Shown piece by piece: positions 29,366 through 43,743 of a stretch of DNA of 64,000 nucleotides. Every line of letters starts with the position of its first letter. Position 1 is the first letter of the stretch. Made by a program: the position numbers and the translations under genes. Source of the stretch: an uncultured delta proteobacterium (GTDB lineage Bacteria > Desulfobacterota > Binatia > UBA9968); the NCBI GenBank assembly GCA_963737905.1, contig CAVTUQ010000030.1, positions 42,250 through 106,249 on the forward strand. The letters are read 5' to 3'. The notes under the pieces are model-generated. The model did not search any database and was not told the origin of the DNA. It was given only the letters and a program-made list of their open reading frames with translations.

Positions 29366-29896
29366 TCAGTTGCGTGACCGGTTTATCTTGTGCTTACCGG
29401 ATTCGAGCACGCTGTCAATTCGTGCTTCTGCCGCGGTTTTGCTTTCATCCATCACTTCCGAGATCTCGCATATCAGTAGCTTTCTCGCACGATACAGCGC
29501 ATCCCGATCGTGCGGTGCGAGGGTCTTGGTGCCGCTCAACTGAGTCAGCGACTCGACCATGCTAGCCAATTCGAATATGGATCCAGAGTTGAATAGTTTT
29601 AAATTGTCTACTTCGCGCTGGCGCCAGTTTTTGCCTGTTCCAAGATCTCTAGTCACTCCGGCTCGTGTCTTGAGGTGGCCTAGCAGCTTGGGAATCTCAG
29701 ACCGCTTGAGCAATGCCCGCAGGTGTAAATCGCGGGACTTATCGACCGGCACAAACAACTCGGCCCTGCTATCGTCCAATAGGGCTAATCGGTAAAAGCT
29801 CACCGACGTGCCACATACCACTTTCTCGACGATTCCACCGATAAGACAAGGTCCCCGACCCGGATAGATAACTCTATCGCCAACTGTCAACGTCAT
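29366..29896 (-). CDS. CarD family transcriptional regulator
   Basis: VGDRVIYPGRG, NWRQR, SGSIFELA, ARKLLICEISEV. Confidence 0.88.
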   Translation of the reverse strand: MTLTVGDRVIYPGRGPCLIGGIVEKVVCGTSVSFYRLALLDDSRAELFVPVDKSRDLHLRALLKRSEIPKLLGHLKTRAGVTRDLGTGKNWRQREVDNLKLFNSGSIFELASMVESLTQLSGTKTLAPHDRDALYRARKLLICEISEVMDESKTAAEARIDSVLESGKHKINRSRN

Positions 29897-30325
29897 TCGA
29901 ATCTCCACTTCTGCTGGATCCCGGATAAAGTGAATTTTCCAGTTTGTTGAGTCCAATATTGCCAGCTTCTAAACTAGCATCCTTCGCGTCGGATTCTTCA
30001 TGTCCACTGAAACGACACCTGGCAAGTGGAACTCGATCTCGTCCAGTGCTTACGGGGTCATCGGAGAAGCGTGCCAGATACTAAGGTGAAAGCAGGAGAA
30101 GTTCGCTAGAACCTCGGTGTTACATAACTGTACCACCTCTGATTGGAATAAGATATGGCTTGGACTTTGAGGGAGATGATACAGTTCCTAAGTATTCGGG
30201 TTGGACCTGTGCAGATATTGATTCAGGGGAATCATCTGGGGGACGACCCTTCCTCACGCTGTCGTAGAGCGTTTTACCCGCGCAGTCTCTCTCCCGCCTT
30301 TGAACTTCCGTAGTCTGCGCTAAGG

Positions 30326-31009
30326 TCACTGGGATTTTTCTTGCTCCATCCATTGAATCGCGTACCGGACAAGCTCGCTGGCATCACCTAAGGTCATTTT
30401 CTCCTTGATATGTTCACGATAGGACTCCACCGTTTTTACGCTCAGGTGCAACTCTTCTGCAATGCGGCGCGTTCCATGACCCTGGCCGATGAGCCGAAAG
30501 ACCTCCAGCTCGCGGTCACTGAGCCGATCCACGGGAAATTTGAGGTTTGCTCCTCCGGCGCCAACGAATTGCTGCAGCATCTTGTTGGCCATGCGATCGC
30601 TCAAATAGACTGCCCCGCTTAGAACCCGGCGCAATGCGACCAGCACATTCTCGGTGGCTTCTTGCTTCATAATATATCCTCTAGCGCCGGCACGCAGCGC
30701 CCGGGGAGCGTAGATGGATTCGTCATGTATGGAGAGAACCAGCACCGGCAAGCCGGGCATGCGGGTCTTCAAGTGCTTGATCAGCTCGATGCCATCGGGG
30801 CCCTTCAGCGAAATATCCGCAATGGCAATGTCAGGCTTCAAAATCTCCATTGATTTGAGCGCCGCGTAGATGTCTTCCGCCGCACCGCAAACAAACAGAT
30901 CCGGCTCCCCGTTGATCAACCGGGCAAGTCCTTCGCGCACAATCGGATGGTCATCGATGACAAAGACCGTGCACTTCTTCTTGATCGGATGTTTCCGCTC
31001 GCTCGACAA
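30326..31009 (-). CDS. NarL/LuxR family response regulator
   Basis: IDDHPIVREG, ADISL (phospho-Asp), GYIMK, LSDRELEVF..HLSVKTVESYR. Confidence 0.95.
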   Translation of the reverse strand: MSSERKHPIKKKCTVFVIDDHPIVREGLARLINGEPDLFVCGAAEDIYAALKSMEILKPDIAIADISLKGPDGIELIKHLKTRMPGLPVLVLSIHDESIYAPRALRAGARGYIMKQEATENVLVALRRVLSGAVYLSDRMANKMLQQFVGAGGANLKFPVDRLSDRELEVFRLIGQGHGTRRIAEELHLSVKTVESYREHIKEKMTLGDASELVRYAIQWMEQEKSQ

Positions 31010-31019
31010 AACTCCTCCG

Positions 31020-32792
31020 TTAATCTTCGACCCGCATCGGGAGCGCGCAAACTACGACCGTGCCACCTGTGGGATTTTTCTGAATATCCAGCGATGCACC
31101 AATCATATTGGCGCGATAATTCATCGTACGGATTCCCATGCCTTCTTTGTTTCCAGGCCGATCCGTGAATCCCGATCCATCGTCTTGGATACTGATTAGA
31201 ACTTGATCCCGGCGGTGCGACAGACCGATGACTATTCGCCGGGACTGGCCATGTTTGATAGCGTTCGTTACAGCTTCTTGAGCGATTCGATAGAGGTGGG
31301 TTGCCACATCAATGTCGCGAATCGAAACTTCCTCATCCACTTTGAAATGACACGAGATATGAAAAAGCTCTTCGACTTCGGTTGCTAGGTGTTGGAGTGC
31401 CGACGTTAACCCCTTCGACCCCGATGGAACCGGAAGCAACCCTCTCGCTAGTTCGCGGGTCTGATTAATGGCTTCGTTGACCAGCCGCGCTATCTTACCG
31501 GCATCGCAGGCATCCGGGACTGACTTTTCAATCAGCTTGCGTTCCAATACCTTGCTCAGGAAAGCGACACCCGTCAGATGTTGCCCAAGGCCGTCATGCA
31601 GGTCCTGTGCGATACGACCTTTCTCCTTCTCGCTGATGTCCAGGATCGACTTCTCCAGCCGTTTGCGCTCGATCATCTCGCTTCTCAAAGTCTCGTTGGT
31701 AATCGCCAATTGAGCGGTGCGTTCCTGAACGCGGATCTCCAATTCATGACGCGCCCTGACCAGGGCGTCTTGGATACGCTTGCGCTCCGTAATATCCGTG
31801 ATCGAGGCCAAGACCTGCATCTCGTTGACCGTGCCGATCGGATTCAGCCCAATCTCCACCGGGAACTCACTCCCATCCTTACGAAGACCGTAAAGATCGC
31901 GGCCCGCCCCCATCGGCCGGACCATGGGCTTAGCGAAAAACTCGCTGAGCTGGCGGAAATGCTGACCGCGAAACCGTTCGGGCACCAGCATCTCCACCGG
32001 GTGGCCCAGTAACTCTTCCCTCATATAGCCGAAAATGATTTCCATCTGGGAATTCGCCATCAAAATCGTGCCATCGCGTCCGACCGTGATCATCCCATTG
32101 GGAGCTCCTTCGACCGCGACGCGAAATTGCTCTTCGCTCTGGCGCAACGCTGCTTCGGCCCGCGCCCGTTCGGCGATTTCCGCTTGTAGCAGAGTGTTGG
32201 CGGCTGCAAGTTCTCTAGTCCGCTGCTCGACTCGATTTTCCAATTCGTCGTGGGCCTCTTGCAGTTCCGCCTCGACGTGTTTGAGATCGGTGATATCAAA
32301 GGCAATGCCATGAACGAACCAGGGCCGACCCTCCTCAGTTCGGACCATCTTGACGTCACAATGGAACCAAACGGTGTGTCCGTCCCGCGCGATGATCCGA
32401 TACACGGATCGCAAAGGTTCACCCGAGAGCACCATCTGGGCAGCCTCGAGGTTCCAACGCTCTTTATCATCAGGGTGGATCTGCCGATACCATCGGATGG
32501 GATCGTCAAGCCACTCGTCCTGCGAGAATCCAAGCGCGGCCTCAATATAGGGACTGACGTAGGCCTCGCTGATCCCTCGATCAAGAAAAATCATGAAGAC
32601 GACGGCGGGGACTTGTTCGGTTAAGGTGCGGTACCTGGCTTCGATGTCTGGCAAGGGTCGATGATCTTCTTGGATCCCCCCTTCGCCGTTTTTGAATGGT
32701 TTGGCACTTGCCTCGAAAAAGACTCCGGCGAGGCCCTGGATGATACTTTCCGCTTCCTTCAGACTCAGTGGCGTTTCAGCAACCTGGCTCAC
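31020..32792 (-). CDS. Cytoplasmic double-PAS sensor histidine kinase (HisKA_3 class)
   Basis: PAS IHPDDKE...DITD, second PAS LVPERFR..GLRKDG..DITE, H-box RIAQDLHDGLGQ, EAVTNAIKH, DDGSG. No TM segment. Confidence 0.93.
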   Translation of the reverse strand: MSQVAETPLSLKEAESIIQGLAGVFFEASAKPFKNGEGGIQEDHRPLPDIEARYRTLTEQVPAVVFMIFLDRGISEAYVSPYIEAALGFSQDEWLDDPIRWYRQIHPDDKERWNLEAAQMVLSGEPLRSVYRIIARDGHTVWFHCDVKMVRTEEGRPWFVHGIAFDITDLKHVEAELQEAHDELENRVEQRTRELAAANTLLQAEIAERARAEAALRQSEEQFRVAVEGAPNGMITVGRDGTILMANSQMEIIFGYMREELLGHPVEMLVPERFRGQHFRQLSEFFAKPMVRPMGAGRDLYGLRKDGSEFPVEIGLNPIGTVNEMQVLASITDITERKRIQDALVRARHELEIRVQERTAQLAITNETLRSEMIERKRLEKSILDISEKEKGRIAQDLHDGLGQHLTGVAFLSKVLERKLIEKSVPDACDAGKIARLVNEAINQTRELARGLLPVPSGSKGLTSALQHLATEVEELFHISCHFKVDEEVSIRDIDVATHLYRIAQEAVTNAIKHGQSRRIVIGLSHRRDQVLISIQDDGSGFTDRPGNKEGMGIRTMNYRANMIGASLDIQKNPTGGTVVVCALPMRVED

Positions 32793-32837
32793 ATTAGTTC
32801 ATCCAATCGGACGTTCAACGTTCACGGTTATAAGGAT

Positions 32838-33935
32838 TCAACTTGGACGAGACCGCTTGTCCCTTTCAACTTTAAACCTGGAACTTTGAACCTCGTTGGG
32901 TCGAGTCGTCGGATGCCGCCATTCGGGTTCTTTATTTAAGGACGCCTGGGTAAAACTGCGCAGGGCGCGAATCGTCTTTCCGTAGGTCATAACCGCGGTC
33001 GTTGAAAGAATCGATCCCGGAGGTTGATTCATAAATGGCATGAACTTGTCCGGGAATCCCGGCATCGTGCAGCCGATGCAGATGCCCCCTACGTTGGGAC
33101 AGCCCCCTATTCCCGATATCCAACCTCGCTTGCCAACATTGCACTGAACCACCGGCCCCCAGCATCCCAGTTTGACGATGCACTGGCGCGAGCCGTACTC
33201 GTCCGTGAACTCGGCTTGCTCATAATATCCGCCGCGATCGCAACCTTCATGAACGGTCTGGCTAAAAAGCCAAGTAGGCCGCAGGGCTTCGTCGAGGGGA
33301 ATCATGGGTGCGCTACCGGCGGCTTGATACAATAGATAGAGCAAAGTCTCCATGAAATTGTCCGGCTGAACCGGGCAACCGGGCACACACACGATGGGAA
33401 TACCGGAGTTCGATTTCCATTGCCAGCCCAGGTAATCCGCCAGTCCCATGGCACCGGTCGGATTTCCCTCCATCGCATGGATGCCGCCATAGGTAGCGCA
33501 TGTCCCGGCCGCAATCACCGCCCACGCATTGGGCGTGAGCCGATCAATCCACTCACAAGTCGTGATCGGCTGGCCAGTTGCTTTGTCGGTTCCTAATGCA
33601 GCCCAATAACCTTCTTCTTTGATCTTTTCGTTGGGAATGGATCCCTCAACGACCAGGATGAAAGGGGCAAGCTTACCTTCGGCGGCGCGATGAAAGGGTT
33701 GCAGGAAGTTCTCCCCGTTTTCACAAGAGAGAAAGGGATTATGAAAATTGACTTTGGGAATACCGGGGAGAGCTCCGAGTAAAATGTCTTCCAGGCTCGG
33801 CTGCGTCGCGGCGGTGATGGCAATGGTATCCCCGTCACACCCGAGACCGGCCGTAATCCATAGAATATCGATCTCCCGGATCGGCTCGGAAGTTGAGGAA
33901 AGGCTGTGATTTTTGACGCTCTGATCCTCAGTCAT
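32838..33935 (-). CDS. [NiFe]-hydrogenase small-subunit homolog, group 1h (HhyS)-like, no large subunit nearby
   Basis: ILWITAGLGCDGD, VVEGSIP, GTCATYGGI, PGCPVQPD, VHEGCDR, CIVKLGCWGP, QCN, GCPNVGGICIGC. No Tat signal. ATG at 33935 overlaps the upstream stop. Confidence 0.9.
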   Translation of the reverse strand: MTEDQSVKNHSLSSTSEPIREIDILWITAGLGCDGDTIAITAATQPSLEDILLGALPGIPKVNFHNPFLSCENGENFLQPFHRAAEGKLAPFILVVEGSIPNEKIKEEGYWAALGTDKATGQPITTCEWIDRLTPNAWAVIAAGTCATYGGIHAMEGNPTGAMGLADYLGWQWKSNSGIPIVCVPGCPVQPDNFMETLLYLLYQAAGSAPMIPLDEALRPTWLFSQTVHEGCDRGGYYEQAEFTDEYGSRQCIVKLGCWGPVVQCNVGKRGWISGIGGCPNVGGICIGCTMPGFPDKFMPFMNQPPGSILSTTAVMTYGKTIRALRSFTQASLNKEPEWRHPTTRPNEVQSSRFKVERDKRSRPS

Positions 33936-34761
33936 TCGCGTGCAGAGCAAACGTCGCGGAATCCTCGTTGGTAATCTGCAGGCGAAACCCGCTAGGCTCC
34001 CTAAAATAAGTGCCCAACTGTTCCGGCCGCCTTCCTTCGCGCTCGCCGTGGTCGTCGTGCTCGTCAATTCCCGCGCGGTGGAGTTTGTCGACGATTGCGT
34101 GAAAGTTATCGTCGGTCACGGTAAAGGCGAAATGGCGCCCTCGATAGGTCGTTTTCGTAACTTCGCTGAGCTCGTCGACCTGGTTGAGAACGACACACTG
34201 ATCCGAGGGAACTCCGATGACGGCCATGCCGTCTTTCTGCTCCACCAAAGCGAAATTCAAGAGGCTCTTGTAGAAACTGACGCTGGCCTCTAGGTCAGTG
34301 GTGTCAAAATGCAGGTGATGAAGCCGGGTCTTGCTGATTCCTTTGGCCCCGGCGATTTCCAGAAAGTTACCCTCGGAGTCCTGGAAGACCAATCCTTCGT
34401 TCCAACAACAACCCAATCTCTTTTCGTTTTTTATCTCTTTCACAAAGGGACTCGCGCGGCGGATTTTTTCCGCCATCGGTTCAAATTCATTTTCGGGAAC
34501 GATAAAGGAATGCCGTGGGTAAGAAGCAGCGCTCTCGCGCTTGGGCAAGATAGTCTTTCCCTGAGAAAACAATCCGACATGGTTTTCCCCCAATTTCATG
34601 AATACGCGGTTCATGTTCGGACTGTCGAACCGCTTCAGAGTTCTCGCCCCGAGAATCTCCGTGTAAAACTTCTCGGCCCGGTCCGCATCCATCACTGCCA
34701 CGACAAAATGGTCCAAGTGCCGGACATCCCCTTTGGTCTTCGCTTCAGTGCCCATGTTCAA
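33928..34761 (-). CDS. Two-domain VOC (glyoxalase/dioxygenase-fold) protein
   Basis: LDHFVVAV..AEKFYTEILG, DSEGNFLEI, LHHLHF..SVSFY, HFAF, EPSGFRLQI. Confidence 0.85.
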   Translation of the reverse strand: MNMGTEAKTKGDVRHLDHFVVAVMDADRAEKFYTEILGARTLKRFDSPNMNRVFMKLGENHVGLFSQGKTILPKRESAASYPRHSFIVPENEFEPMAEKIRRASPFVKEIKNEKRLGCCWNEGLVFQDSEGNFLEIAGAKGISKTRLHHLHFDTTDLEASVSFYKSLLNFALVEQKDGMAVIGVPSDQCVVLNQVDELSEVTKTTYRGRHFAFTVTDDNFHAIVDKLHRAGIDEHDDHGEREGRRPEQLGTYFREPSGFRLQITNEDSATFALHAND

Positions 34762-34983
34762 GTCCTCCTTTTCTCTTTGTCTGTGATTATTCTGGTTTTC
34801 TGCTACGGAGACATTTCGAGGTTCGCAGAGGTCGGAGAATTTTTAATTAAGAACTCCTTACTTCGTTCGGGCCTGACACGTCGCCTTAACGGTGCAATTC
34901 CGAGCCGCGATTCGAGGAATCTTTCTGATGTTCAGCGGCCAAGCTCAGATTCTAGCTCCCGATGGAGCTCGTGAGGGGAATCC

Positions 34984-36060
34984 TTATTCTGACGAACTAT
35001 CAGGAAACACGACCATCTTTTCCTTGGGGAAGGAAATAGAAACTTTTCCCTCCGGTCTATTACCGTCCGGCATGGCCTTGGCCGTCAATACTGAATTCTT
35101 AATCTTCATTTCGAAGATCACTTGATCCCCGACGAACGTGGAACTTGAAACTGTCGCCGCGAATCGATTACTTGAACCGTCCGCGAAATCAATCTTCATA
35201 TCTTCCGGCCTGATTCCTACAACGACGTTTCGGTTTGTCTCCCCACAGAAATCGACTTCGATCCTGCCGATCTCCGTCTCTACGCAATGTTTATCAAGGA
35301 CTGTGCCGTGAAGCCAGTTCATCGAGCCGAAGAATTCGGCCACCTGAGGGCTCTTCGGGTCACGGTAAAGCTCGTAAGGATTCCCCACCTGTAAGAGTTC
35401 TCCATGCGCCATGACCGCAATACGATGCGCCAGCACCATGGCTTCCACTTGATCATGGGTCACGTAGAGAACAGTGATTCCCAGCTCGCTGACCAGTTTC
35501 TTGATCTTCGTGCGCACCTCTTCTCTGAGCCGCGCATCGAGATTGCTCAGCGGTTCGTCCATGAGGAGCAGCTTGGGATTAATCGCCAATGCCCGCGCCA
35601 GAGCGACCCGTTGCTGCTGGCCGCCGCTCAGCAGCCGGGCCGGCCGCTTCTCGAAGTCGTCAAGCTGCACCAGACGCAGGGCATGCCGGATCCGTTCTGT
35701 GGCCTCGTTTCGAGAAAGCCGCGCGGGACCATGGGTCAATACGAGTCCGATATTTTCGGCGACGGTCATGTGCGGCCAAATCGCGTAGGACTGAAAGACC
35801 ATACCGATCTGCCGCTCCTCCGGCGGGACATTGCTGCGCGGATTAACAGAAAAAACGGTTTTCCCATCGAGAATAATATTCCCTACGTCGGGTTTCTCCA
35901 GTCCTGCAATGCAGCGCATCAAGGTGGTCTTCCCCGAACCACTAGGCCCTAGAAGAACGAAGAACTCCTTTTTCCCGACTTGAAGATCGATGCCATTTAG
36001 GGCAGCCACCGTTTGTTCGCCCGACTTGAAGTTCTTGCGCAAACCGGAGACGGAAATCAT
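34984..36060 (-). CDS. ABC transporter ATP-binding protein (FbpC/PotA-like)
   Basis: GPSGSGKTT, LSGGQQQRVALAR, MDEPLSNLD, VTHDQ, C-terminal TOBE-like region. Confidence 0.93.
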   Translation of the reverse strand: MISVSGLRKNFKSGEQTVAALNGIDLQVGKKEFFVLLGPSGSGKTTLMRCIAGLEKPDVGNIILDGKTVFSVNPRSNVPPEERQIGMVFQSYAIWPHMTVAENIGLVLTHGPARLSRNEATERIRHALRLVQLDDFEKRPARLLSGGQQQRVALARALAINPKLLLMDEPLSNLDARLREEVRTKIKKLVSELGITVLYVTHDQVEAMVLAHRIAVMAHGELLQVGNPYELYRDPKSPQVAEFFGSMNWLHGTVLDKHCVETEIGRIEVDFCGETNRNVVVGIRPEDMKIDFADGSSNRFAATVSSSTFVGDQVIFEMKIKNSVLTAKAMPDGNRPEGKVSISFPKEKMVVFPDSSSE

Positions 36061-37757
36061 AGCGCTTCTTCCAAACGGCTCCGTCGGCCCACCGTCAAAT
36101 ACAGCAAGACCAGAGGCAACATGAAAAGGAGGATCACCAGATTGGCCGCCGCGGCCTGATTGAGGCTACCTCCCAGCCACAATCCCCAAACGATCATCGG
36201 CAATGTGACGTTATTCTGGTTAGTGACCAAAACCGAGGCCATGGTCAACTCGCGATAACAAAGCAAAGCCATCCACAGCCAGGCGTATACCAAAGCCGGC
36301 TTGAGCAACGGCAGCAGTATCTTGCGCATCACCTGCAACACCCGCAGCCCCCCGGCAAAGGCGGCTTCTTCAAGCTCGGGGTGGATCTGTGCCAGGGAGT
36401 TGTTGATGATGCGCGTCGCGAAGCTGATACGGCTTATGGTGTAAACCAAAACCAGGATCGATAGGGTGCCGTAAAGGGGCAGAATGCCGCGCAACAGAAA
36501 AAGTGCTACAAACACGGCGGCGATCGCCAAGATGATGCTGGGCACGGCATGGGGCAGAAAGGCCAGCGCATCAAACACGATCCGCCACTTTAAGTCCGAT
36601 CGAAGAATCACCCAGGATATCGCCAAACAAAGAACTAATGTCAGGCTTGGCACCGCCAACATCAAAAGCAAGGTGTTTCGGGCGCCGGTCAACAAGAGAT
36701 CCCACGGCAGCCCATAAAAGTTGCGCAGCGATACCTGGCTTAACGCCGCCCAGGACGGCGGTTGAAAGTAACTCAACAGCGCAGCCCAGGCGAGGAGAAA
36801 AAGCGGCAAAAGTTTGGCTACGAGAAAAAAGAACCCAAGAAAAATCCACGCATAAAACCGTCCGCGCCTTCCAAGCTCGACGAGCTTTGGGCGATAGGCG
36901 CGGCCGGTAACGACAGCGTAACGAGAAGAGAAACGGAGCACTTTGAAATACCACCAGCTGAGCAAGAGCGCCAACACGACGAGCAAGCTGCTGACCGCTC
37001 CGGCGACGCCGTAATTAGGCAATTCCTCCAGCGGCTGCATTTTGTAGAAGATGAAAGTCGAGAAGGTAAAAATCTTGTTCGACATACCGATGATTGCCGG
37101 GACTTCGAAAGCCGAGAGCCCGATAGTGAAAATATAAATGGCCGCCGCCAGAATGCCGGGAAAGGTCAGCGGCAAGGTGATGTAGCGCAGGGTCTGCGCC
37201 ATTTTCAGACCGTGGACTCTTCCGGCTTCTTCCAGGGACGGATCCATGGTGCGATAGGTCGCCACGATCATGATAAATGCTATAGAGGATAGGCCGAGTC
37301 CTTCAACCCAGCCCATGCCGACGATCGACGCAATGTTAAATGGACCCTGCGCCAGGCCGAAGGCATCGACAAAGATCCGGTTCACCACGCCGATGCGTGG
37401 ATGCAACAGAAATACCCAACCCATGGCTGTAAAAAAAGTCGGGACCAACGCGCCCACCGCCATGAGCGTGAAAACCCATTCCTTTCCCGGCAGGTCAGTT
37501 CGTTCCACCAACCACGCGATAGGAATGGCGAAAAACAGAGAAATCGCCACCGTCGTTGATGCGAATCCCAGGGTATTGAGCAGTGTCTTAAAGGTAAAAG
37601 AATCGGTGAGGATATTGCGGTAGTGATTGAGCGTGTAAACCACAGGCTCGCCCGGCCCGCTTTGCCAGAAGCCCATCCAAAAGATCACCAGCAGGAGCCC
37701 GATCACGGGCAGCAGCGCTGCCGCCGACACTCCCACGAGCAACCAACGACCCTTCAC
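36057..37757 (-). CDS. ABC transporter permease, duplicated domain (FbpB-like)
   Basis: Many TM segments and two EAA loops (LEEAGRVHG, LEEAAFAGG). Confidence 0.92.
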   Translation of the reverse strand: MKGRWLLVGVSAAALLPVIGLLLVIFWMGFWQSGPGEPVVYTLNHYRNILTDSFTFKTLLNTLGFASTTVAISLFFAIPIAWLVERTDLPGKEWVFTLMAVGALVPTFFTAMGWVFLLHPRIGVVNRIFVDAFGLAQGPFNIASIVGMGWVEGLGLSSIAFIMIVATYRTMDPSLEEAGRVHGLKMAQTLRYITLPLTFPGILAAAIYIFTIGLSAFEVPAIIGMSNKIFTFSTFIFYKMQPLEELPNYGVAGAVSSLLVVLALLLSWWYFKVLRFSSRYAVVTGRAYRPKLVELGRRGRFYAWIFLGFFFLVAKLLPLFLLAWAALLSYFQPPSWAALSQVSLRNFYGLPWDLLLTGARNTLLLMLAVPSLTLVLCLAISWVILRSDLKWRIVFDALAFLPHAVPSIILAIAAVFVALFLLRGILPLYGTLSILVLVYTISRISFATRIINNSLAQIHPELEEAAFAGGLRVLQVMRKILLPLLKPALVYAWLWMALLCYRELTMASVLVTNQNNVTLPMIVWGLWLGGSLNQAAAANLVILLFMLPLVLLYLTVGRRSRLEEAL

Positions 37758-37759
37758 GG

Positions 37760-38828
37760 CTATTTCCCCATCAGGATATCTTGAAACTTCTGGCGTACCC
37801 GACTCTGGTTCTCGCGGTTTTTTACGACCTCGGAGACAGGGTTGGCAAAGAATTTAACCCCCTGGCGCTCCTGCTCTTTGACGAATTTGTTCATGTAAGT
37901 TCCTTCGACAAAGTGAGAACTCGTCTTCTCCGTTTGCCACAGAATATCCTGCCCGTCCTTGCTGAGCAGCAGGCCGGCCAGAAGCGCCGCTGCGTTGGGA
38001 TGGGCGGAGTTCGTTGGCACCGTGAGATACCAGTAGGAAAGAATACCGGCGTCCTTAAAGATTCTGCCGTTTACCGGCGCCCCTTTCTGATGCATTTCAT
38101 TGGCGTCCGCGAGATCACAGTTGAAAACCAACATGGCAAACTCGCCGTTGGCGACGCGCTCTTCCTCGCCGCAGCGGATCAGTCCTGAGACCTGTTTGAC
38201 GAATTTCTGGAGAAAAGCCGTGGTTTTCTCTTCGCCCCATATCAGCGCCAGGCGGTCAAAGGATGCCGCATAGGGAGTCGAAGCGATTTTTCCCTTCCAC
38301 TTGGGGTTGAGCACGTCCTCGACTTTCTGTGGAACTTCGCTGGCGGCGACGAGATTGGTATTATAAGTAAACCCCGGCGTACGCGAGACCACGACAAGCA
38401 CCCGGTCGTCCCAGTCTGTCATCTCGCGCGTGATATGGGGAAACGCTTTGGTCCATTCGAATTTCTTCAGCGACATCCGCACGACGTGATTCTCCGAGCC
38501 GATAAAGAGATCGCTGGAGGCGGCCTGCCCGGCCTTCGCCTCTTGAATGATCCGGCTGGCAAATTGCGGCATCGCGGGGCCAGGGGTGAATCTAAATTGC
38601 ACATTCAAGCCGTAGGCTTTGGCGAAAGCTTTTTCCATTGCCCGCGCGCCCTCGATCCCGCCCATGGTCCCGGTGCCCCAGCTGAGCGTGAGACTACCTT
38701 CCTTCTTAGCCCCCTCGATGAGTTGTGGCAGAGTCTGGGCGAAAGCTGTTACGCGGGAGTGACTACCAATGCCCACAATCAAACTCAGCGAGCACTAGCG
38801 AAAATCTAGATCCGTTGAATCTGCGCAT
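37760..38828 (-). CDS. Extracellular solute-binding protein (Fe3+-type); signal peptide frameshifted near 38790
   Basis: AKKEG, YNTNLV..PQKVEDVLNPKWKGKI, AHPNAA. Confidence 0.82.
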
Positions 38829-38924
38829 TCATAGTCCGCTCCTCTGACTTTGAACCTTGAACTTTGAACGTTGAACCCTCGTTGCGAACGGCTTGAACGT
38901 TTTGAACGACTTGAACAGCGCAAG

Positions 38925-39887
38925 CTAGAGGTCCATCCGTTTTCCCAGGCCTCGACGCACCGCTTCCTCGTAGAGCCAGGCGGCGAAAATCATGTCTCCG
39001 TAGCCGCCCTGCGATTCTCTAAAGATGTTGATCTCATCGCCATCCGCGCGGCCAACCACGCGGCCGGTGACCAATTCTCCCAACTCGGGAATCCGACTCC
39101 AGGAAAGCTTGCCTTCAGCCGTCAACTCTACGAGAGGAAGCGCCGCAGAGCGGTCGTTATAGTTTCGTTCTTGCTCCTGACTCCCCACGACAATTCGACT
39201 AGCCTTAAGAAGCAGGCCACGGCTCAACTCAGTGGGTTTCCCCATGCTGCTCACATGAGTACCGGGCTCGACCCAGCTTTCCGGAAATATCGGACTCAAC
39301 GAATTGGTCGCCGTCAGGATAACATCCATGCCACGCACGGACTGTTCAGGATTGTCGACCCCCCGAACGGTTATGCCGAGCAGCTGCGCCGCCTCGTCGC
39401 AGAATTTTTGCCGCCGCACGGGATCGCGGCTGGAAACGGAAATTTCTTTGATGCCGCGAACAGTAAGCAGAGCCTTGAGAATGCCCAACGCGTTTCGCCC
39501 GACGCCGAACAAGCCCAAGCGTTGAGAATCTTCACGCGCCATATGCTTCGCCGCGATCGCCACGACTCCGGCGGTTCTCAAGGTTCCGAACGGAAAACCC
39601 ATGAAAGAGAGCAGCTCGCCGGATTCCGTATCAAAAAGCAGCGCGTACATCATGTCGCCACCGCCCAAACCACTATTCGGGCCCAGTCTGACTCCGACGC
39701 GCCGCGATTCCAAAGCGGCGCCTGAAACCACCCGCAGGCCACTGTGGGCACCGACCGGAATATGGTACGGCGCGTGCGGAACTATCTTCCCCTGCGCTTG
39801 CTGCCGGTGAACCTCTTCGATCAGCTCGATCGCTTTCTTGAGATCGAGCAAGGGTCGAAGCTCATCGCGGCTGAGTATTAGCGGCAT
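38925..39887 (-). CDS. Ornithine cyclodeaminase / mu-crystallin family protein
   Basis: TLRTAG, GLFGVGRNA, ILTATNS, PGTHVS, ESQGGYGD. Confidence 0.88.
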   Translation of the reverse strand: MPLILSRDELRPLLDLKKAIELIEEVHRQQAQGKIVPHAPYHIPVGAHSGLRVVSGAALESRRVGVRLGPNSGLGGGDMMYALLFDTESGELLSFMGFPFGTLRTAGVVAIAAKHMAREDSQRLGLFGVGRNALGILKALLTVRGIKEISVSSRDPVRRQKFCDEAAQLLGITVRGVDNPEQSVRGMDVILTATNSLSPIFPESWVEPGTHVSSMGKPTELSRGLLLKASRIVVGSQEQERNYNDRSAALPLVELTAEGKLSWSRIPELGELVTGRVVGRADGDEINIFRESQGGYGDMIFAAWLYEEAVRRGLGKRMDL

Positions 39888-39988
39888 CTTTAGCTCCGGC
39901 TGGCGCCCGCATTTCTCTCGACCTTGAACCTTGAATCATTGAATGACCTCAAGGGTTTAAGCAACGATTTCAACTTTTTGAACGTTCT

Positions 39989-41209
39989 TCAGTCCCCCGC
40001 CACTACCAGATCGTGGGGCCGCTTGCCCAGCCGTCGTCCGCCGTTCTTCGTTATCACCACGGTGTCGCCCCACGTGCAGATGTACTGGTTATCCGCGGTA
40101 ATCGCCGAGGGCTTGCAAATAAAAACCATATTTTCGCGCAGCGCGACGCCTAGCTCCTTTGCACTGTGGGCGTGAGCAGTAATGATCGGACCGTCGTCGC
40201 CGGCGCCGCGGCCATGCATGTTGAGATCCGCCTTCGCCCCAGCGGCCGGGCCCGACTTCGGCGCGGCCTTTTGTCCGGTTTGAAGCGTCAGCTCAGCCAG
40301 ATCACCGACGGTAACACCAGGCTTCAGGTTCTCGAGAACCCGATTGAATACTTCTCTTTGCACTTTGATCAGCTCGGCATGCACGGGATCGATCTCCTCG
40401 ACAAATACCGGCTGCACGCCTTGCGAGCGATAACCCATCCATGACGCTTCCGTCTCATTGATAATCAAATCACCGCGCTCCAAGATACGCATGCTGGGGC
40501 GGGTCAACGTGCGCCGCGGATTTTTTCCGGACACCCAGTTGAAGTGCACCGGCATCTCGGAGCCGTTGCGCATGAGGGCGTATTGGTTCGCCGCCCAGAC
40601 ATCCCAATCTTTCACACCCGGCCGCGCTGCTTCGATCTCGGCTTCAAACGCAAGCTCGATGATCTCCATTGATTTGCTCAGCGCATCCAGCTCTTCCTGG
40701 CTTTTGATGTAGCGGACTTCTGTAAGCAGCGAAGTCGTATCGATCAACTCGGCATTGGGAAAGGCTTCGCGGATTTGTTTCCACGTACCATAGAAAATAG
40801 TTCCTTCCGGCGTCCGCGTTCCCTCGACTTCTCCCAGACCGGTGATGCCGATCCGGCCGCGCTCGATGTTCAGTTCTTTCAGCCGCTGCACGATGATGCG
40901 ACCGTAGTTCCGTCTCGCCTCGCGCACATCGTCGGTCCAATCCTGCACTGTCGGCCAGCGTGGCGCCGCTGAAGTCGCGATGGCAGTAACTTCACCTTCC
41001 AGAGGAAATACGGCCGCGACGTCGGCATCTCCGCCCCCGCCCACGTGGGTGAGATAGCGGGAGTTGGCCTGGTAGTCCGTCGAATGACCGCTGTTTTGCG
41101 GGGTGACGATGACGTCCAATCGTTGTTGCCGCATCAGCTCGCGCACCGCCTTCCACCGTCGATCTCGCTCGGCTAATGAAAACCGGGGATAAGGATACAG
41201 TTCAGCCAT
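39989..41209 (-). CDS. M24 (creatinase/Xaa-Pro) family hydrolase with non-canonical metal ligands
   Basis: Creatinase N-domain (SRYLT), RYIKSQEE, HGRG, FICKP, GDTVVIT..GGRRL. Confidence 0.85.
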   Translation of the reverse strand: MAELYPYPRFSLAERDRRWKAVRELMRQQRLDVIVTPQNSGHSTDYQANSRYLTHVGGGGDADVAAVFPLEGEVTAIATSAAPRWPTVQDWTDDVREARRNYGRIIVQRLKELNIERGRIGITGLGEVEGTRTPEGTIFYGTWKQIREAFPNAELIDTTSLLTEVRYIKSQEELDALSKSMEIIELAFEAEIEAARPGVKDWDVWAANQYALMRNGSEMPVHFNWVSGKNPRRTLTRPSMRILERGDLIINETEASWMGYRSQGVQPVFVEEIDPVHAELIKVQREVFNRVLENLKPGVTVGDLAELTLQTGQKAAPKSGPAAGAKADLNMHGRGAGDDGPIITAHAHSAKELGVALRENMVFICKPSAITADNQYICTWGDTVVITKNGGRRLGKRPHDLVVAGD

Positions 41210-41324
41210 AAATACGACTCCGCTTTGCGGTTACTTCAGTTGATTTCTACGACTACAACCGCCCGTGCACGGCCAGTAAGTATCACCAAAGGGATTGGGA
41301 AGCTAGGGTACTGGAAAGGGTGAA

Positions 41325-41530
41325 ATGAATCACCCCGCAGCAAGCTGCCGGGGTATCAGAACGTAGCGATGAGAATTTATCCCAAGGGCGTCACCCCCGA
41401 ATGTCTTAATCGGGGTCCAGTCAGAGTTTCGTCTGGATTCCCGCTAAGAGCATGCGGGAATGACCGACTTGAGAGGACAGGAATTGCATTACACAGCAAG
41501 GTGCGGGGAATGGACCCCAAAAAGATTGAA
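41325..41530. mobile_element. ~200 bp composite MITE-like element, copy 1
   Basis: ccccgcagcaagctgccgggg end hairpin, internal gtcacccccg..cggggtccag and ctggattcccgc..gcgggaatgac hairpins. Collinear with 58645-58840. Confidence 0.7.
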
Positions 41531-41572
41531 TTGCTGGACGCCCATCCAAGATGAGCGGGCAAGCGCTTCTCG

Positions 41573-42754
41573 TTAATCCTTCACGATCAACTGAAGCTCT
41601 CGCTTGCCCAACCGTCTGGCGCCGTTTTCCGTGACCGTGACGGTATCGCCGAGGCTGGCGCGGCCTTTGCCTTCAGCGGGCCTCACTTGAGGCTTGAGAA
41701 TGAACGTCATGCCGGTTTGCACCTGAAGCTTAGAGAACCGCTCCAGGTCTTTATCTCCCAACAACGCTGGTCCGTCGTCGCCGAGACCGCGCGCGTGCAT
41801 CATCGGATGATTCCACAGATACTTGCTCTTGCCATGATGCTCGACGGTATCTCGGTAGATCTCGAATAGCTGGCCGAATGTCACGCCCGGTTTCATCGCG
41901 CCGAGAATTGCGTCGAAGCAGGCACGCGAGATATCGATCATCTTTTGATACTCGGTGTCCGGCGTCCCAATGACCACCGGACACACGGCCTGCGCCGCGT
42001 AGCCGCAATACTTCGCTTCAATCTCGTCGATGATCCGGTCGCCTTTTTGGATTCGATAGTCGGTGGGAACGAAAGAGCTGTTGCTGAGGCCCGGCCCCGC
42101 GCTCAGAAAAAACAATGTCGGCAGCTCGCCGCCGTTGGCAAGCATCGTCTGCACCATCGCCCCATAAAGCTCCTTTTCGCTTACGCCGGGACTGGCGTTT
42201 TCCACCATCGCTTCGATGGTCTTCTCCACAATCGCGGCGGACCGTTCGAGCATCGACACTTCCTCCGCGCTTTTGACGGCGCGGATTTCTTGCATCATCT
42301 CCGTGACGTTGACGATCTTCGCTTGAGGAAACGCGTCCTGAATCGCTTTCACCGAAGAGTAGGGAATGATTCCTTCCGGCGCGCGAAATAGACCGGCGAG
42401 CCCGGAAATCCCGATGGTGCCTTTTTGCAAGCCGAGTTCGCTAATCCGCTCGATCGCGTTCTGTCCCCAACGGTTGCGCCCGTCGCGGACGTCGGCGACC
42501 CATTTCTGCGCCTGTTTCCACCAGGCCGCGCGGTTGAAGATGTACGCGGTGACATCGCCTTCACGGGGAAATACAGTGAAAACTTCGGTAGCAAAGCCGC
42601 CAATCGTGGTGAGATAGCGTGAGTCGCCTTGCAGCTGTTCCCACCGACCGGTATTCGCCGGCAGCAGCAAGCAATCGATACCGCGCTTCGCCATCTCACC
42701 TCTAACGATTTTGTAGCGACGATCACGCTCTTCAATAGATAATTGTGGAATCAT
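41573..42754 (-). CDS. M24 (creatinase/Xaa-Pro) family hydrolase with non-canonical metal ligands (paralog 2)
   Basis: DSRYLT, RAVKSAEE, HARGLG, FILKP, GDTVTVTENGARRL. Confidence 0.85.
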   Translation of the reverse strand: MIPQLSIEERDRRYKIVRGEMAKRGIDCLLLPANTGRWEQLQGDSRYLTTIGGFATEVFTVFPREGDVTAYIFNRAAWWKQAQKWVADVRDGRNRWGQNAIERISELGLQKGTIGISGLAGLFRAPEGIIPYSSVKAIQDAFPQAKIVNVTEMMQEIRAVKSAEEVSMLERSAAIVEKTIEAMVENASPGVSEKELYGAMVQTMLANGGELPTLFFLSAGPGLSNSSFVPTDYRIQKGDRIIDEIEAKYCGYAAQAVCPVVIGTPDTEYQKMIDISRACFDAILGAMKPGVTFGQLFEIYRDTVEHHGKSKYLWNHPMMHARGLGDDGPALLGDKDLERFSKLQVQTGMTFILKPQVRPAEGKGRASLGDTVTVTENGARRLGKRELQLIVKD

Positions 42755-42792
42755 TATCTCTTTACCTCAATCTCTGTGGTTTCCGATAACTT

Positions 42793-42871
42793 CTTGAACG
42801 ATTTGAACGTTTTGAACTGTTTGAACCAATTTCGTTCAAGCGGTTCCAGTCGTTCAAGTCGTTCAAACCGT
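42793..42871. repeat. Inverted array of TTGAAC-core 9-mers
   Basis: ttgaacgat ttgaacgtt ttgaactgt ttgaacc followed by the reverse-complement units gttcaagcg gttccagtc gttcaagtc gttcaaacc. Confidence 0.85.
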
Positions 42872-42876
42872 CGGAA

Positions 42877-43743
42877 TCAGTGCCTGGTGGTTCGTTCGAA
42901 TCGATGCCCGATCTGTATTCTGTTACCGAAGGGATCATAGCCATAAACCGTGTGGCCGCCCTGTTCGTGCCAGGGAATTTTCGTGGGATCAGGTCCCCAG
43001 TAGTATTCTTTTCGGTTGAACCGTTCAAGGATCAGTGGATACAGTTCCGGCGCGATCCGAAAATCGATGTGGGGTCCCTTGACCGCGCGCGTGCTGCGTT
43101 CGGCGACTTGATCGACCTTGCGCAGAATCACCAACTGCCCTGTGTTCGGCACGGTGAGCGTAAACTGCTCTTCACCCGGCACTTGTCCCCCTTCCGTCAG
43201 ACCGAATGTATCCCGGTACCAGATCTTTCCCTGTTCCAAGTCCGTCACCTCGACGCGGACGTGGCTGATGCGGCGCAACGGAACGGTCTTTCCCTGAGGT
43301 TTGTCGGCTACGGGATCCCGGCGGATCGAAAGCTCCACGGTGTTGCCGTCAGGATCCAGAACGAAAAGCGACTCTTTGATTGGACAGGGCGCAGTGTATT
43401 CCACCGGCCCATGCCATTTGAGTTTCCGCTCTTCGGCTGCGCGCGCCACGGCGGTCAAATCCTCCGCCGCGACTTCGAAGCCGTAGACGACACCTTCCAT
43501 TGGTCGCGACGGTGTGGGAGAGATCGGAAAGTCCTGCAGGGCCACCCCCCAGCCTTTGTGGTTCGCCAGCGTGTAAAAAACAATCTGCGGCACTTCGCGA
43601 TTGAGCCCGCGGATATTCAAGTTGGTGAGATGGTCGATCTCCCCGCCCATGAAAGTTCTCCAGAAGCGGTGCGCGCGCCCCAAGTCATTACTCGGAACGA
43701 CACCATGGTCGATCCTTTCTATTGTCACCGTTTCAGTTACCAT
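42877..43743 (-). CDS. Two-domain VOC family protein
   Basis: IDHGVV..DLGRA..F, DPDGNTVEL, ISHVRVEVTDLE, DPFGNRIQI. Confidence 0.85.
   Translation of the reverse strand: MVTETVTIERIDHGVVPSNDLGRAHRFWRTFMGGEIDHLTNLNIRGLNREVPQIVFYTLANHKGWGVALQDFPISPTPSRPMEGVVYGFEVAAEDLTAVARAAEERKLKWHGPVEYTAPCPIKESLFVLDPDGNTVELSIRRDPVADKPQGKTVPLRRISHVRVEVTDLEQGKIWYRDTFGLTEGGQVPGEEQFTLTVPNTGQLVILRKVDQVAERSTRAVKGPHIDFRIAPELYPLILERFNRKEYYWGPDPTKIPWHEQGGHTVYGYDPFGNRIQIGHRFERTTRH

Follow-up and report, generated by a model that had tools for sequence, protein, structure and literature searches.

The window (the whole stretch of 64,000 nucleotides that was analysed) carries a cassette in which a hydrogenase small subunit, called S' here, is followed by a soluble PAS histidine kinase and a NarL-type response regulator, and we put at roughly four in five the probability that this cassette is the input module of a switch for hhySL, the genes of a group 1h hydrogenase of the atmospheric-H2 type. 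Judged by sequence comparison, S' is a duplicate of the HhyS type kept under purifying selection, which forms a separate and strongly conserved paralogue clade and is not a stranded hhyS. The cassette probably represents a so far uncharacterised switch for group 1h hydrogenase genes; no description of a regulator of these genes in Acidobacteria was found in the literature searched.

The first-pass annotation had described four co-oriented genes between positions 30326 and 34761, coding for a VOC protein, the small subunit, a PAS-PAS-HisKA_3 kinase and a NarL-type regulator. This layout was confirmed (Table 1), and so were the 8-bp overlap between the VOC and S' genes, read directly from the sequence as ATGACTGA, and the gaps of 45 bp between S' and the kinase and of 10 bp between the kinase and the regulator, taken from the list of open reading frames. 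The VOC gene, for which the ATG at 34755 (preceded by AGGAGG) is the likelier start, could not be upheld as a member of the module: the one genome with a homologue is G002, of the same genus, and there the two genes are at least 121 bp apart and do not overlap. No conserved gene was found upstream of S' among the related loci, the best cluster comprising 4 loci, and a scan for promoters and terminators between 29900 and 35100 gave nothing exceeding shuffled controls.

Table 1. Features of the cassette and its surroundings, in positions of the window, with the basis of each assignment
Feature	Position	Strand	Basis and remarks
S' small subunit, 365 aa	ATG 33935 to 32838	minus	Pfam Oxidored_q6 + NiFe_hyd_SSU_C
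Soluble sensor histidine kinase, 590 aa	31020..32792	minus	Pfam PAS_3 + PAS_9 + HisKA_3 + HATPase_c; order from N to C terminus: helix, linker, PAS1, PAS2, HisKA_3, HATPase_c
Kinase N-terminal amphipathic helix, residues 11-30	32703..32762	minus	Consensus AExxLxxLAxVF, conserved in alignment
Kinase PAS1, residues 50-166	32295..32645	minus	Invariant alignment columns and AlphaFold2 PAS fold
Kinase PAS2, residues 205-345, FixL/DosP-like	31758..32180	minus	phmmer against PDB
Kinase HisKA_3 (dimerisation/phospho-acceptor, residues 390-454) and HATPase_c (catalytic, residues 497-587)	31032..31625	minus	Pfam
NarL/FixJ-type response regulator, REC + GerE HTH, 227 aa	30326..31009	minus	Pfam Response_reg + GerE
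Two-domain VOC/glyoxalase-fold protein	33928..34761	minus	Pfam Glyoxalase x2; neighbour, probably outside the module
One-mismatch operator core GGGAATCCT	34976..34984		About 215 nt upstream of VOC; significance doubtful

The identity of S' is well defined by its domains (Oxidored_q6 and NiFe_hyd_SSU_C, with E-values of 6e-22 and 1e-21) and by its closest solved structure, the group 1h HofK (5aa5_A, E 4.8e-177), the runner-up being 1cc1_S (E 8.5e-43). The protein is 66% identical to the HhyS encoded in the same genome and 66-76% identical to HhyS proteins. The reported absence of a Tat signal and presence of the CDGD motif were both verified, the N-terminus (MTEDQSVKNHSLSSTSEPIREIDILWITAGLGCDGD) being devoid of a twin-arginine motif. 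The Fe-S ligands are intact, as the first reading had it: eleven Cys/His columns (C33, C146, C187, H229, C232, C252, C258, C265, C279, C286 and C289) show 100% conservation in the S' and HhyS clades alike, so that the relaxed selection on the Cys ligands, which would have spoken against the first-pass proposal, was not observed. The allocation of these residues to the individual Fe-S clusters is presumed here.

Fourteen sites are fixed differently between the S' and HhyS clades, and those adjoining ligands include T37-I38-A39, C183, G235, Q264 and G268. Two cysteines of S', C127 and C183, are absent from HhyS, which has Asn at both positions; C127 is found in 95% of the S' sequences, as against N in 68% of the HhyS sequences. 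The S' signature (T37, I38, A39, C127, W138, C183, G235, Q264, G268, Q304, S308 and S332) is complete in the window protein and is common to 49 of the 73 clade members. The only segment more conserved in S' than in HhyS comprises residues 300-339 (0.93 against 0.81). An apparent deletion of 9 amino acids in S' relative to the HhyS of its own genome was rejected, as it is actually an insertion peculiar to that HhyS.

The separation of the two paralogues was analysed by means of 136 intact small subunits, in trees rooted on one distant outgroup and with no group 2b reference sequences included. With FastTree, 68 of the 69 kinase-adjacent copies fall in a clade of 73 rows (SH-like support 97), and 59 of the 62 copies next to a large subunit in one of 60 rows (SH-like support 91); L084 and L100, which belong to the kinase-linked or large-subunit-linked rows, are placed outside both. 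The S' protein of the window is placed in the former, and not in the canonical clade, among whose members the first-pass annotation had considered that it might nest. The same two clades were recovered with IQ-TREE from 59 of the 136 rows with moderate support (SH-aLRT 91 and 89). In the 49 genomes having both copies, the rate of divergence of S' is 1.37 times that of HhyS, its mean pairwise identity still being 83%, and 201 of the 322 columns of the S' alignment are at least 95% conserved. The proposal that S' is a duplicated subunit of the HhyS type is supported.

Gene order was compared in the 80 best related loci. In 67 of them the small subunit gene is directly followed by the kinase gene, and 58 of those 67 continue with the regulator, so the succession of small subunit, PAS kinase and NarL-type regulator, whose conservation in other genomes had been suggested as a check, is indeed kept. 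The full order S'-kinase-regulator-hhyS-hhyL is present in 51 of the 80 best loci, with one large subunit for two small subunits. Most carriers are devoid of a dedicated large subunit for S', and typical ones (G440 and G441) have one group 1h-type large subunit each, located in the cassette locus. Other arrangements also exist. In G022 (96% complete) and G444 the sole small subunit found belongs to the S' clade and adjoins a group 1h large subunit, locus L087 has the order S'-large subunit-kinase, and in the sister genera G022 and G013 the large subunit gene comes after that of the kinase.

Searches with PF00374 and PF01924 agreed, as far as the large subunit and HypD are concerned, with the earlier statement that the window encodes neither a large subunit nor a hyp gene. 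The separate canonical hhySL that had been proposed as an object of search is present in the genome (6.7 Mb, 87% complete), in which the sole large subunit (PF00374) and the sole HypD (PF01924) found both lie on contig C25. The cassette is on contig C30; hhyL is therefore not beside S', and the cassette is unlinked from hhySL, as it also is in at least one of the sampled Acidobacteriota genomes, G723, at a distance of about 620 kb. In a sample of 401 genomes of Acidobacteriota (the phylum to which the genome of locus L041 belongs) the kinase N-terminus was found in 12, all of which fall among the 18 genomes with an HhyL at least 65% identical to that of the window's genome. None of these 12 carriers has the cassette without HhyL. 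When 401 genomes from the window's own phylum were sampled, kinase matches were obtained in 3, two of them weak.

The kinase is modular: its N-terminal helix and PAS1 are conserved across carriers and its transmitter is variable. Identity over the first 200 residues amounts to 50-70% in 74 kinases adjoining S'-type genes, and among 69 cassette kinases scanned PAS_3 was detected in all 69, HisKA_3 in 59 and HisKA in 8. Within the kinase it is PAS1 whose conservation goes along with that of S', and its C145 is invariant. The AlphaFold2 model consists of helix 11-30, a linker of low confidence (residues 31-49) and a PAS1 fold with pLDDT above 90, for which Foldseek, run with the N-terminal model, returned generic PAS, LOV and FixL folds to which no cofactor could be assigned. 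Helix 11-30 is a candidate docking element for S'. In a complex prediction, S' (A1) and kinase residues 1-200 (A2) reached a score of 0.12 and a mark of 0.32, values that speak neither for nor against binding. PAS2 was matched by phmmer to PDB entries of FixL (8js5, 1d06 and 1dp6) and DosP, with E-values from 6e-15 to 7e-9; its His278 aligns with the residue that we take to be the heme ligand of FixL, and heme binding by PAS2 is putative.

The association between S' and the kinase is also found within a single polypeptide. The fusion protein P0001 (761 aa), known from one contig, comprises an S'-type subunit with C127, W138 and C183, the same N-terminal helix, a PAS1 domain that is 45% identical (E 4e-40) and an HWE kinase. 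P0031, a second apparent fusion, seems garbled by frameshifts. The regulator of the window is 59-66% identical to the regulators that come after the cassette kinase in Acidobacteriota loci, and its NCBIfam matches are NarL/MctR-like, under the curated cut-offs.

A candidate operator was recognised in the spacers between the regulator and hhyS. The 17-bp palindrome ATCrGGGAWTCCCyGAT (core GGGGAWTCCCC, with at most one core mismatch) occurs in 43 of 51 such spacers, compared with 32 of 335 control windows. It is absent from all three spacers in which the regulator is only about 30% identical, and from 5 of the 48 with an orthologous regulator. In the genome of the window, CTAGGGGATTCCCCTAG on C25 precedes the hhyS ATG by 156 nt, and the same-genus genome G002 has the palindrome about 195 nt upstream of its hhyS. 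The 11-nt core occurs twice in the 6.7 Mb; the second copy, on contig C7, lies within an ORF of 209 aa and was taken as a chance occurrence. Position and co-variation suggest that the regulator would bind this palindrome. In this genome the cassette would have become separated from hhySL with its candidate operator retained. No good copy of the palindrome precedes the cassette itself, where only the one-mismatch core of Table 1 is found, and such cores are common (31 in the window, about 19 being expected). Autoregulation of the cassette is not supported, one-mismatch cores being present in 12 of 68 regions upstream of S' and in 32 of 335 controls.

The mechanism that can be proposed from these elements would start with S', which would have an HhyS-like fold and three Fe-S clusters and would be held by the soluble kinase through its N-terminal helix and PAS1, probably also by means of the C-terminal segment of S'. 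Together with the single HhyL of the cell, S' would constitute a sensing heterodimer, in which H2 oxidation by HhyL would reduce the cluster chain of S', and the redox state of this chain would set the activity of the kinase. The NarL-type regulator would then act on the 17-bp palindrome upstream of hhyS and adjust the transcription of hhySL. The complete scheme with a borrowed HhyL is given slightly less than an even chance. Of the sensory module proposed in the first-pass annotation, the tie of S' to one lineage of PAS kinases and to a NarL-type regulator is supported; the physical binding of S' to the kinase, its pairing with HhyL and the nature of the signal that it perceives are the parts that we infer. 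Pairing with a large subunit is favoured by G022 and G444, where S'-clade proteins adjoin one, by the order seen in L087 and by the single group 1h-type large subunit of G440 and of G441, and the link with the hydrogenase by the presence of HhyL in all 12 carriers of the kinase. A more specific version is put forward tentatively: a new class of H2 sensors derived from a group 1h enzyme and having no catalytic subunit of their own, in which S' would compete with HhyS for HhyL. The S'-HhyL pair, docked on the kinase, would perceive H2 even at atmospheric concentrations and pass the signal to a NarL-type regulator acting on the GGGGAWTCCCC palindrome.

The most serious alternative, though an unlikely one in our estimation, is that S' works with no large subunit, as an Fe-S protein that is docked on the kinase and by itself reports cellular redox state or O2, so that starvation or an appropriate redox state, and not H2, would turn on hhySL. 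Most carriers do lack a large subunit dedicated to S', as seen in the 51 loci with one large subunit for two small ones and in G440 and G441 with one each; the two clade-specific cysteines and the changes adjacent to ligands could retune or expose the clusters, and the likeness of PAS2 to heme PAS domains that sense O2 makes an O2 or redox theme plausible. Besides, the induction of hhyL that is described in PMC8027828 occurs under carbon limitation, which a starvation or redox signal fits at least as well as H2. On the other hand, S' is conserved over its full length, without the large relaxed patch that a lost large-subunit interface would be expected to leave, in G022 and G444 the sole small subunit next to a large subunit is of the S' clade (with S' also preceding the large subunit in L087), and in the sample the cassette never occurs without HhyL.

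It is improbable, in turn, that S' is an alternative catalytic small subunit, which would provide HhyL with another electron acceptor or potential and would be physically unconnected to the adjoining two-component system. Such an isoform would keep every ligand column and group with functional small subunits, as S' does; no small subunit other than S' was found in G022 and G444, and the clustering of the differences around the Fe-S ligands is what redox tuning would predict; but the tie to the kinase lineage is very tight (one kinase-adjacent copy apart, all are in one clade), the conserved part of the kinase is its input module and the variable part its output domain, at least one S'-kinase fusion exists, and S' heads a regulatory unit instead of a structural operon. 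That S' could be a functionless remnant of hhyS, stranded by deletion of hhyL, hardly deserves credence: the window is without a large subunit and the sister genera G022 and G013 have one after the kinase, but the frame is intact, the ligands are invariant, the clade averages 83% identity and dozens of species retain the synteny. Scattered contigs from the soil RNA libraries X19 and X20 also match the stretch, some of them over the S' gene, which is a hint only given that DNA carry-over is possible; parts without coverage carry no weight.

The cassette is a concrete candidate for the regulator of group 1h genes: its input would be an Fe-S protein, its kinase has a conserved PAS and candidate docking module, and its regulator has a predicted operator at hhyS. 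If S' does share HhyL, a sensory hydrogenase would have evolved independently of the group 2b sensors, and if the group 1h H2 sensor is real, the enzyme would itself contribute the sensor component of the system that governs it. The matter is of environmental relevance, as a large share of the atmospheric H2 taken up by soils is consumed by group 1h hydrogenases, according to published work that includes PMC8027828.

The novelty claimed in the first-pass annotation has to be reduced with respect to S', since an extra hhyS copy is already in print. For Acidobacteriaceae bacterium KBS 83, Edaphobacter aggregans and Pyrinomonas methylaliphatogenes, Giguere et al. (2020, PMC8027828) describe an additional hhyS copy that precedes the structural genes of the group 1h enzyme by about 3,600 bp. 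They also report the induction of hhyL in carbon-limited stationary phase in cultured Acidobacteria and the detection of hhyS homologue expression in one of their two strains only; the words kinase, regulator and sensor are absent from the main text of that article. Because the published spacing fits the S'-kinase-regulator-hhyS order of 51 of the 80 loci, the published copy almost certainly belongs to the same paralogue clade as S'. Both are alike in the distribution of the clade in Acidobacteriota and in the association with hhySL, whereas the cassette of the window is on a contig apart from hhySL and in another phylum. The instance outside Acidobacteriota and the candidate operator are new here, and this instance suggests that the module can work without linkage to its target genes and that it has passed from one phylum to another.

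The group 2b regulatory [NiFe]-hydrogenases, such as HoxBC-HoxJ-HoxA of Cupriavidus necator and HupUV-HupT-HupR of Rhodobacter (PMC12319191), offer the best functional analogy, as they also combine a small subunit without Tat signal, a soluble PAS histidine kinase and a response regulator for uptake-hydrogenase genes. However, S' seems to derive from group 1h, its nearest relatives by identity being of the HhyS type, and the large subunit (HoxC or HupV in those systems) is absent from the window and from beside the cassette, most S' carriers being without one. The kinase core of the window is HisKA_3, and its regulator has the REC and GerE domains of the NarL type and is not NtrC-like; NCBIfam ntrC matches cover the receiver domain only and are far under the cut-off. 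Compared with FixL-FixJ, PAS2 aligns with the heme PAS of FixL and DosP and the regulator belongs to the NarL/FixJ class, but the part conserved with S' is PAS1 and not PAS2, and no NCBIfam score for FixL or FixJ comes near its cut-off.

With canonical HhyS/HofK (5AA5), S' shares the domains, the length class, CDGD, the absence of Tat and all ligand columns, and it differs in its separate clade, in having no hhyL alongside, in the 14 differing sites and in a more conserved C-terminal segment. With the cassette of soil Acidobacteria the window copy has in common the S' signature, the kinase helix and PAS1, an orthologous REC-GerE regulator and, in the same genome, the palindrome (GGGAWTCCC core) upstream of hhyS; it differs from that cassette in not being immediately upstream of hhySL.

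The hydrogenase-like locus of the window is a genuine member of a module in which a paralogue of hhyS is linked to a histidine kinase. The paralogous small subunit is here called S', whereas HhyS and HhyL refer to the canonical small and large subunits of group 1h hydrogenases. The first-pass annotation had described four genes (VOC, S', kinase and regulator), with a candidate H2/redox sensor built on S' and the kinase and regulator, and their arrangement was confirmed in full: the ORFs are co-oriented on the minus strand, with gaps of 45 bp (S'/kinase) and 10 bp (kinase/regulator) and a VOC/S' overlap read directly from the sequence as ATGACTGA, and the coordinates and Pfam domains also agree. 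None of the four proteins exceeded a curated cut-off in the NCBIfam search. S' carries GLGCDGD and lacks a twin-arginine motif. Among solved structures it is closest to HofK, the small subunit of a group 1h enzyme (5aa5_A, E 4.8e-177; runner-up E 8.5e-43).

Coordinates of the features discussed (window positions unless the canonical contig C25 of the same genome is named)
Feature	Position	Strand	Remarks
CarD-like gene	29366-29956	-	CarD_TRCF_RID + CarD_C; 370 bp downstream of regulator
Regulator, 227 aa	30326-31009	-	Response_reg + GerE (Pfam)
Kinase, 590 aa	31020-32792	-	PAS_3, PAS_9, HisKA_3, HATPase_c (Pfam)
Second PAS domain of kinase (PAS2)	31758-32180	-	
S', [NiFe]-hydrogenase small subunit, 365 aa	ATG 33935 to 32838	-	Oxidored_q6 + NiFe_hyd_SSU_C (Pfam)
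VOC	33928-34761	-	two Glyoxalase domains (Pfam)
Catabolic/transport genes upstream of VOC	34984-43743	-	ABC transporter (ATPase, permease, binding protein), ornithine cyclodeaminase-like, two M24/creatinase-like, second VOC
Metatranscriptome contigs on regulator	30306-30436 and 30831-30983		
Metatranscriptome contig on kinase	31699-31918		
Metatranscriptome contig on S'	32908-33772		
Metatranscriptome contig on VOC	33907-34394		
hhyS	C25:73703-74761	-	
hhyL	C25:71850-73622		after hhyS
IS110-family transposase gene	C25:70297-71532 (L005:8298-9533)		between hhyL and NifU-Rieske accessory gene

Membership is supported by the synteny of the best 80 of 597 relatives, nearly all of them MAGs of Acidobacteriota (Terriglobia, Bryobacterales, Blastocatellia); a few come from Planctomycetota and Verrucomicrobiota. 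ORFs in these loci were labelled as small subunit (S), kinase (K), regulator (R) or large subunit (L) by BLAST against the window proteins. S is directly followed by K in 67/80 loci and then by R in 58 of those 67, 51 of which show the full order S'-K-R-hhyS-hhyL, so that the conserved synteny for which a check had been suggested does exist. Other arrangements are S-L (5/80), R-S-L or K-K-R-S cut upstream (4/80), S alone at a contig end (2/80), S-L-K (1/80) and K divergent from S (1/80). One locus, L088, contains two kinase modules (K-R-S'-K-S-L); it is labelled Bacillota (Heliomicrobium sp. MAG), although its genes fall with those of Acidobacteriota, and the contig is therefore possibly mis-binned.

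The VOC gene, on the other hand, does not count among the sensor genes. Among the related loci its homologue was found only in the same-genus genome G002, where it does not overlap S' and at least 121 bp separate its end from the opening of the S' frame; VOC is therefore a neighbour of the module and not a member of it. No gene is conserved upstream of S' in the related loci. The VOC overlapping S' may be the tail of the upstream catabolic/transport cluster. At the other end, downstream of the regulator, lies a CarD-like gene; a CarD-like gene 43% identical to it stands beside S' in one Blastocatellia locus only (L058). In the DNA sequencing run X1, one contig omits 362 bp between the CarD-like and regulator genes (29943-30306), and another has 181 different letters instead of the 218-bp spacer upstream of VOC (34772-34991), which means that strain variants diverge precisely at both edges of the VOC-S'-K-R block. 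Contigs from two soil metatranscriptome runs of one study cover the locus in parts (match at least 95%); as DNA can occur in RNA libraries, this is only a hint of transcription.

The proposal that S' is a duplicated HhyS was borne out by phylogeny. The FastTree analysis comprised 136 intact small subunits, excluding five split ORFs and any with coverage below 290 residues. One clade of 73 rows (SH-like 97) contains 68 of the 69 kinase-adjacent small subunits, together with three copies at contig ends or beside a divergent kinase and two copies followed by a large subunit (L087 and L076, both Planctomycetota). A 60-row clade (support 91) contains 59 of the 62 large-subunit-adjacent copies, and L084, L100 and the outgroup lie outside both. 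An IQ-TREE quick search with 59 of the 136 rows recovered the two clades (SH-aLRT 91 and 89); support for the split is moderate, and a single distant outgroup provides the root. S' is 66% identical to the HhyS of this genome, and within-genome identity is 66-76% in the 49 loci with both copies, where the mean pairwise distance is 0.168 for S' vs 0.122 for HhyS (ratio 1.37). The HhyS of this genome (L005:11704-12762) is an outlier of its clade: its branch is the longest of the inner group (0.43, or 0.88 with IQ-TREE), it has a 9-residue insertion of its own, and position 183 is Cys, as is typical of S'.

Eleven columns (C33, C146, C187, H229, C232, C252, C258, C265, C279, C286 and C289) do not vary in either clade, in keeping with the apparent Fe-S ligand set described previously. 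Different residues are fixed in the two clades at 14 sites, those adjacent to ligands being T37-I38-A39 after CDGD, C183 four residues before C187, G235, Q264 and G268. C127 and C183 of S' stand where HhyS has Asn, and the full S' signature is present in the window protein. Conservation of S' is somewhat below that of HhyS at residues 40-119 and above it at residues 300-339 (0.93 vs 0.81), which makes the latter segment a candidate S'-specific contact.

Over its first ~180 residues the window kinase shares 50-70% identity with the 74 kinases found beside S'-type genes. Their alignment (58 sequences, without the unpublished genome G012) shows a short helix that is conserved (AExxLxxLAxVF, residues 14-26), a linker that varies and a strongly conserved PAS domain (PAS1, residues 50-172) with an invariant C145. 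AlphaFold2 predicted for this N-terminus a helix at 11-30, PAS at 50-166 and a helix at 168-198 (mean pLDDT 86.5), and Foldseek returned only generic PAS relatives. The output part varies: HisKA_3 is found in 59/69 cassette kinases and HisKA in 8/69, and the kinases of the sister-genus genomes G022 and G013 have a HisKA core and no NarL regulator after them, as in G012, where a receiver-only protein follows the kinase. What is conserved as a unit is therefore S' together with the N-terminal helix and PAS1 of the kinase.

A search for longer proteins gave 46 matches at E <=1e-30, most of them small-large subunit fusions. One protein (P0001, 761 aa, a single contig) begins with an S'-type subunit in which C127, W138 and C183 are present, and continues in an uninterrupted frame through a linker and the conserved helix to PAS1 (45% identical to that of the window, E 4e-40) and an HWE kinase. 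The three remaining kinase-type fusions are harder to read: P0031 is apparently garbled by frameshifts, P0014 is labelled partial in its source record, and P0043 shows only 38% identity and has its small-subunit part at the C-terminus, after the kinase part. A single clean fusion lends support without settling the matter. In six further proteins (P0006, P0008, P0010, P0018, P0032 and P0035) a group 1h-like small subunit is joined with AIR-synthase-type domains (PF00586/PF02769, the domain pair of HypE); these could be real fusions or gene-calling artefacts.

The assembly of this genome (6.7 Mb, 46 contigs, 87% complete; the window lies on contig C30) contains a separate canonical hhyS-hhyL pair on contig C25, together with the only HypD found. 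The absence of a large subunit near S' is thus upheld, since the only one found in the genome sits there, as does the only other small subunit. After hhyL follow the IS110 transposase, NifU-Rieske, DUF5947, DUF6084, a gene without Pfam match and the HycI protease; mobile-element activity may be related to the separation of cassette and hhySL.

This linkage also varies in Acidobacteriota, being present for example in G593 and absent in G723 (~620 kb apart). In a sample of 401 genomes of this phylum, to which the genome of L041 belongs, the kinase N-terminus occurs in 12 (identity 51-62%) and HhyL matches at E <=1e-150 in 21, 18 of them at 65% identity or more; the 12 genomes with the kinase all fall within these 18. 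A sample of 401 genomes from the window's own phylum gave only this genome and two weak matches (38-41% identity), and in its family S' was found here and in 4 of 24 other genomes searched. This phylum therefore rarely carries the module, which was presumably acquired from Acidobacteriota-like donors.

Typical carriers have one group 1h large subunit per two small subunits, which makes it plausible, though not proven, that S' shares HhyL. S'-clade proteins do adjoin large subunits and are the sole available partner in two genomes: G022 (96% complete; order S'-K-L) and G444 (L076), where the protein stands beside the large subunit. G013 (S'-K-L) and G443 (L087, S'-L-K) have a canonical pair as well. 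The large subunit of G022 shares 80% identity with HhyL of this genome and 85% with the kinase-following G013 copy. In both G013 hydrogenase loci (L026 on C144; L019/L021 on C43) the subunit genes are split by frameshifts, which looks like an assembly error.

The spacers between regulator and hhyS share the palindrome ATCrGGGAWTCCCyGAT, whose 9-nt core, with one mismatch allowed, occurs in 43/51 spacers vs 32/335 control windows of 350 nt. It is absent from all three spacers (Blastocatellia-type loci L058, L082 and L094) whose regulator, still REC-GerE, is only ~30% identical to that of the window, and no site was found upstream of hhyS in G013 and G012, both without NarL-type regulator. This genome has CTAGGGGATTCCCCTAG at C25:74917-74933, 156 nt upstream of the hhyS ATG, and G002 has CTAGGGGATTCCCCGAA ~195 nt upstream of its hhyS. 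The 11-nt core GGGGAWTCCCC has two copies in the 6.7 Mb, the second inside a 209-aa ORF; by simple arithmetic, the chance of one of two falling in the ~380-bp spacer is ~1e-4. We infer that the regulator binds this candidate operator. From G012 come the S'-K-receiver arrangement, one palindrome absence and two tree rows (L025 and L028), and no conclusion depends on them.

The module has been noticed in print: Giguere et al. (2020, PMC8027828) describe an extra hhyS copy some 3,600 bp upstream of the group 1h structural genes in Acidobacteriaceae bacterium KBS 83, Edaphobacter aggregans and Pyrinomonas methylaliphatogenes. They detected expression of this homologue in KBS 83 and not in E. aggregans, and the words kinase, regulator and sensor are absent from the main text. 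The literature searched, as far as it could be read, contained no characterisation of the module, nor did it describe the cassette as a sensor or mention the palindrome. New here are the module's occurrence in a further phylum, where it is not linked to its target; the candidate operator still connecting cassette and hhySL; the S'-specific Cys pair and more conserved C-terminal segment; and the strict co-occurrence with HhyL within the sampled genomes. S' may sense either H2, by borrowing HhyL, or redox alone.

The kinase may also take O2 as a second input. Its PAS2 is most similar to the PAS domains of the heme-binding O2 sensors FixL and DosP and can be aligned with them, His278 matching the His that is the heme ligand in FixL.
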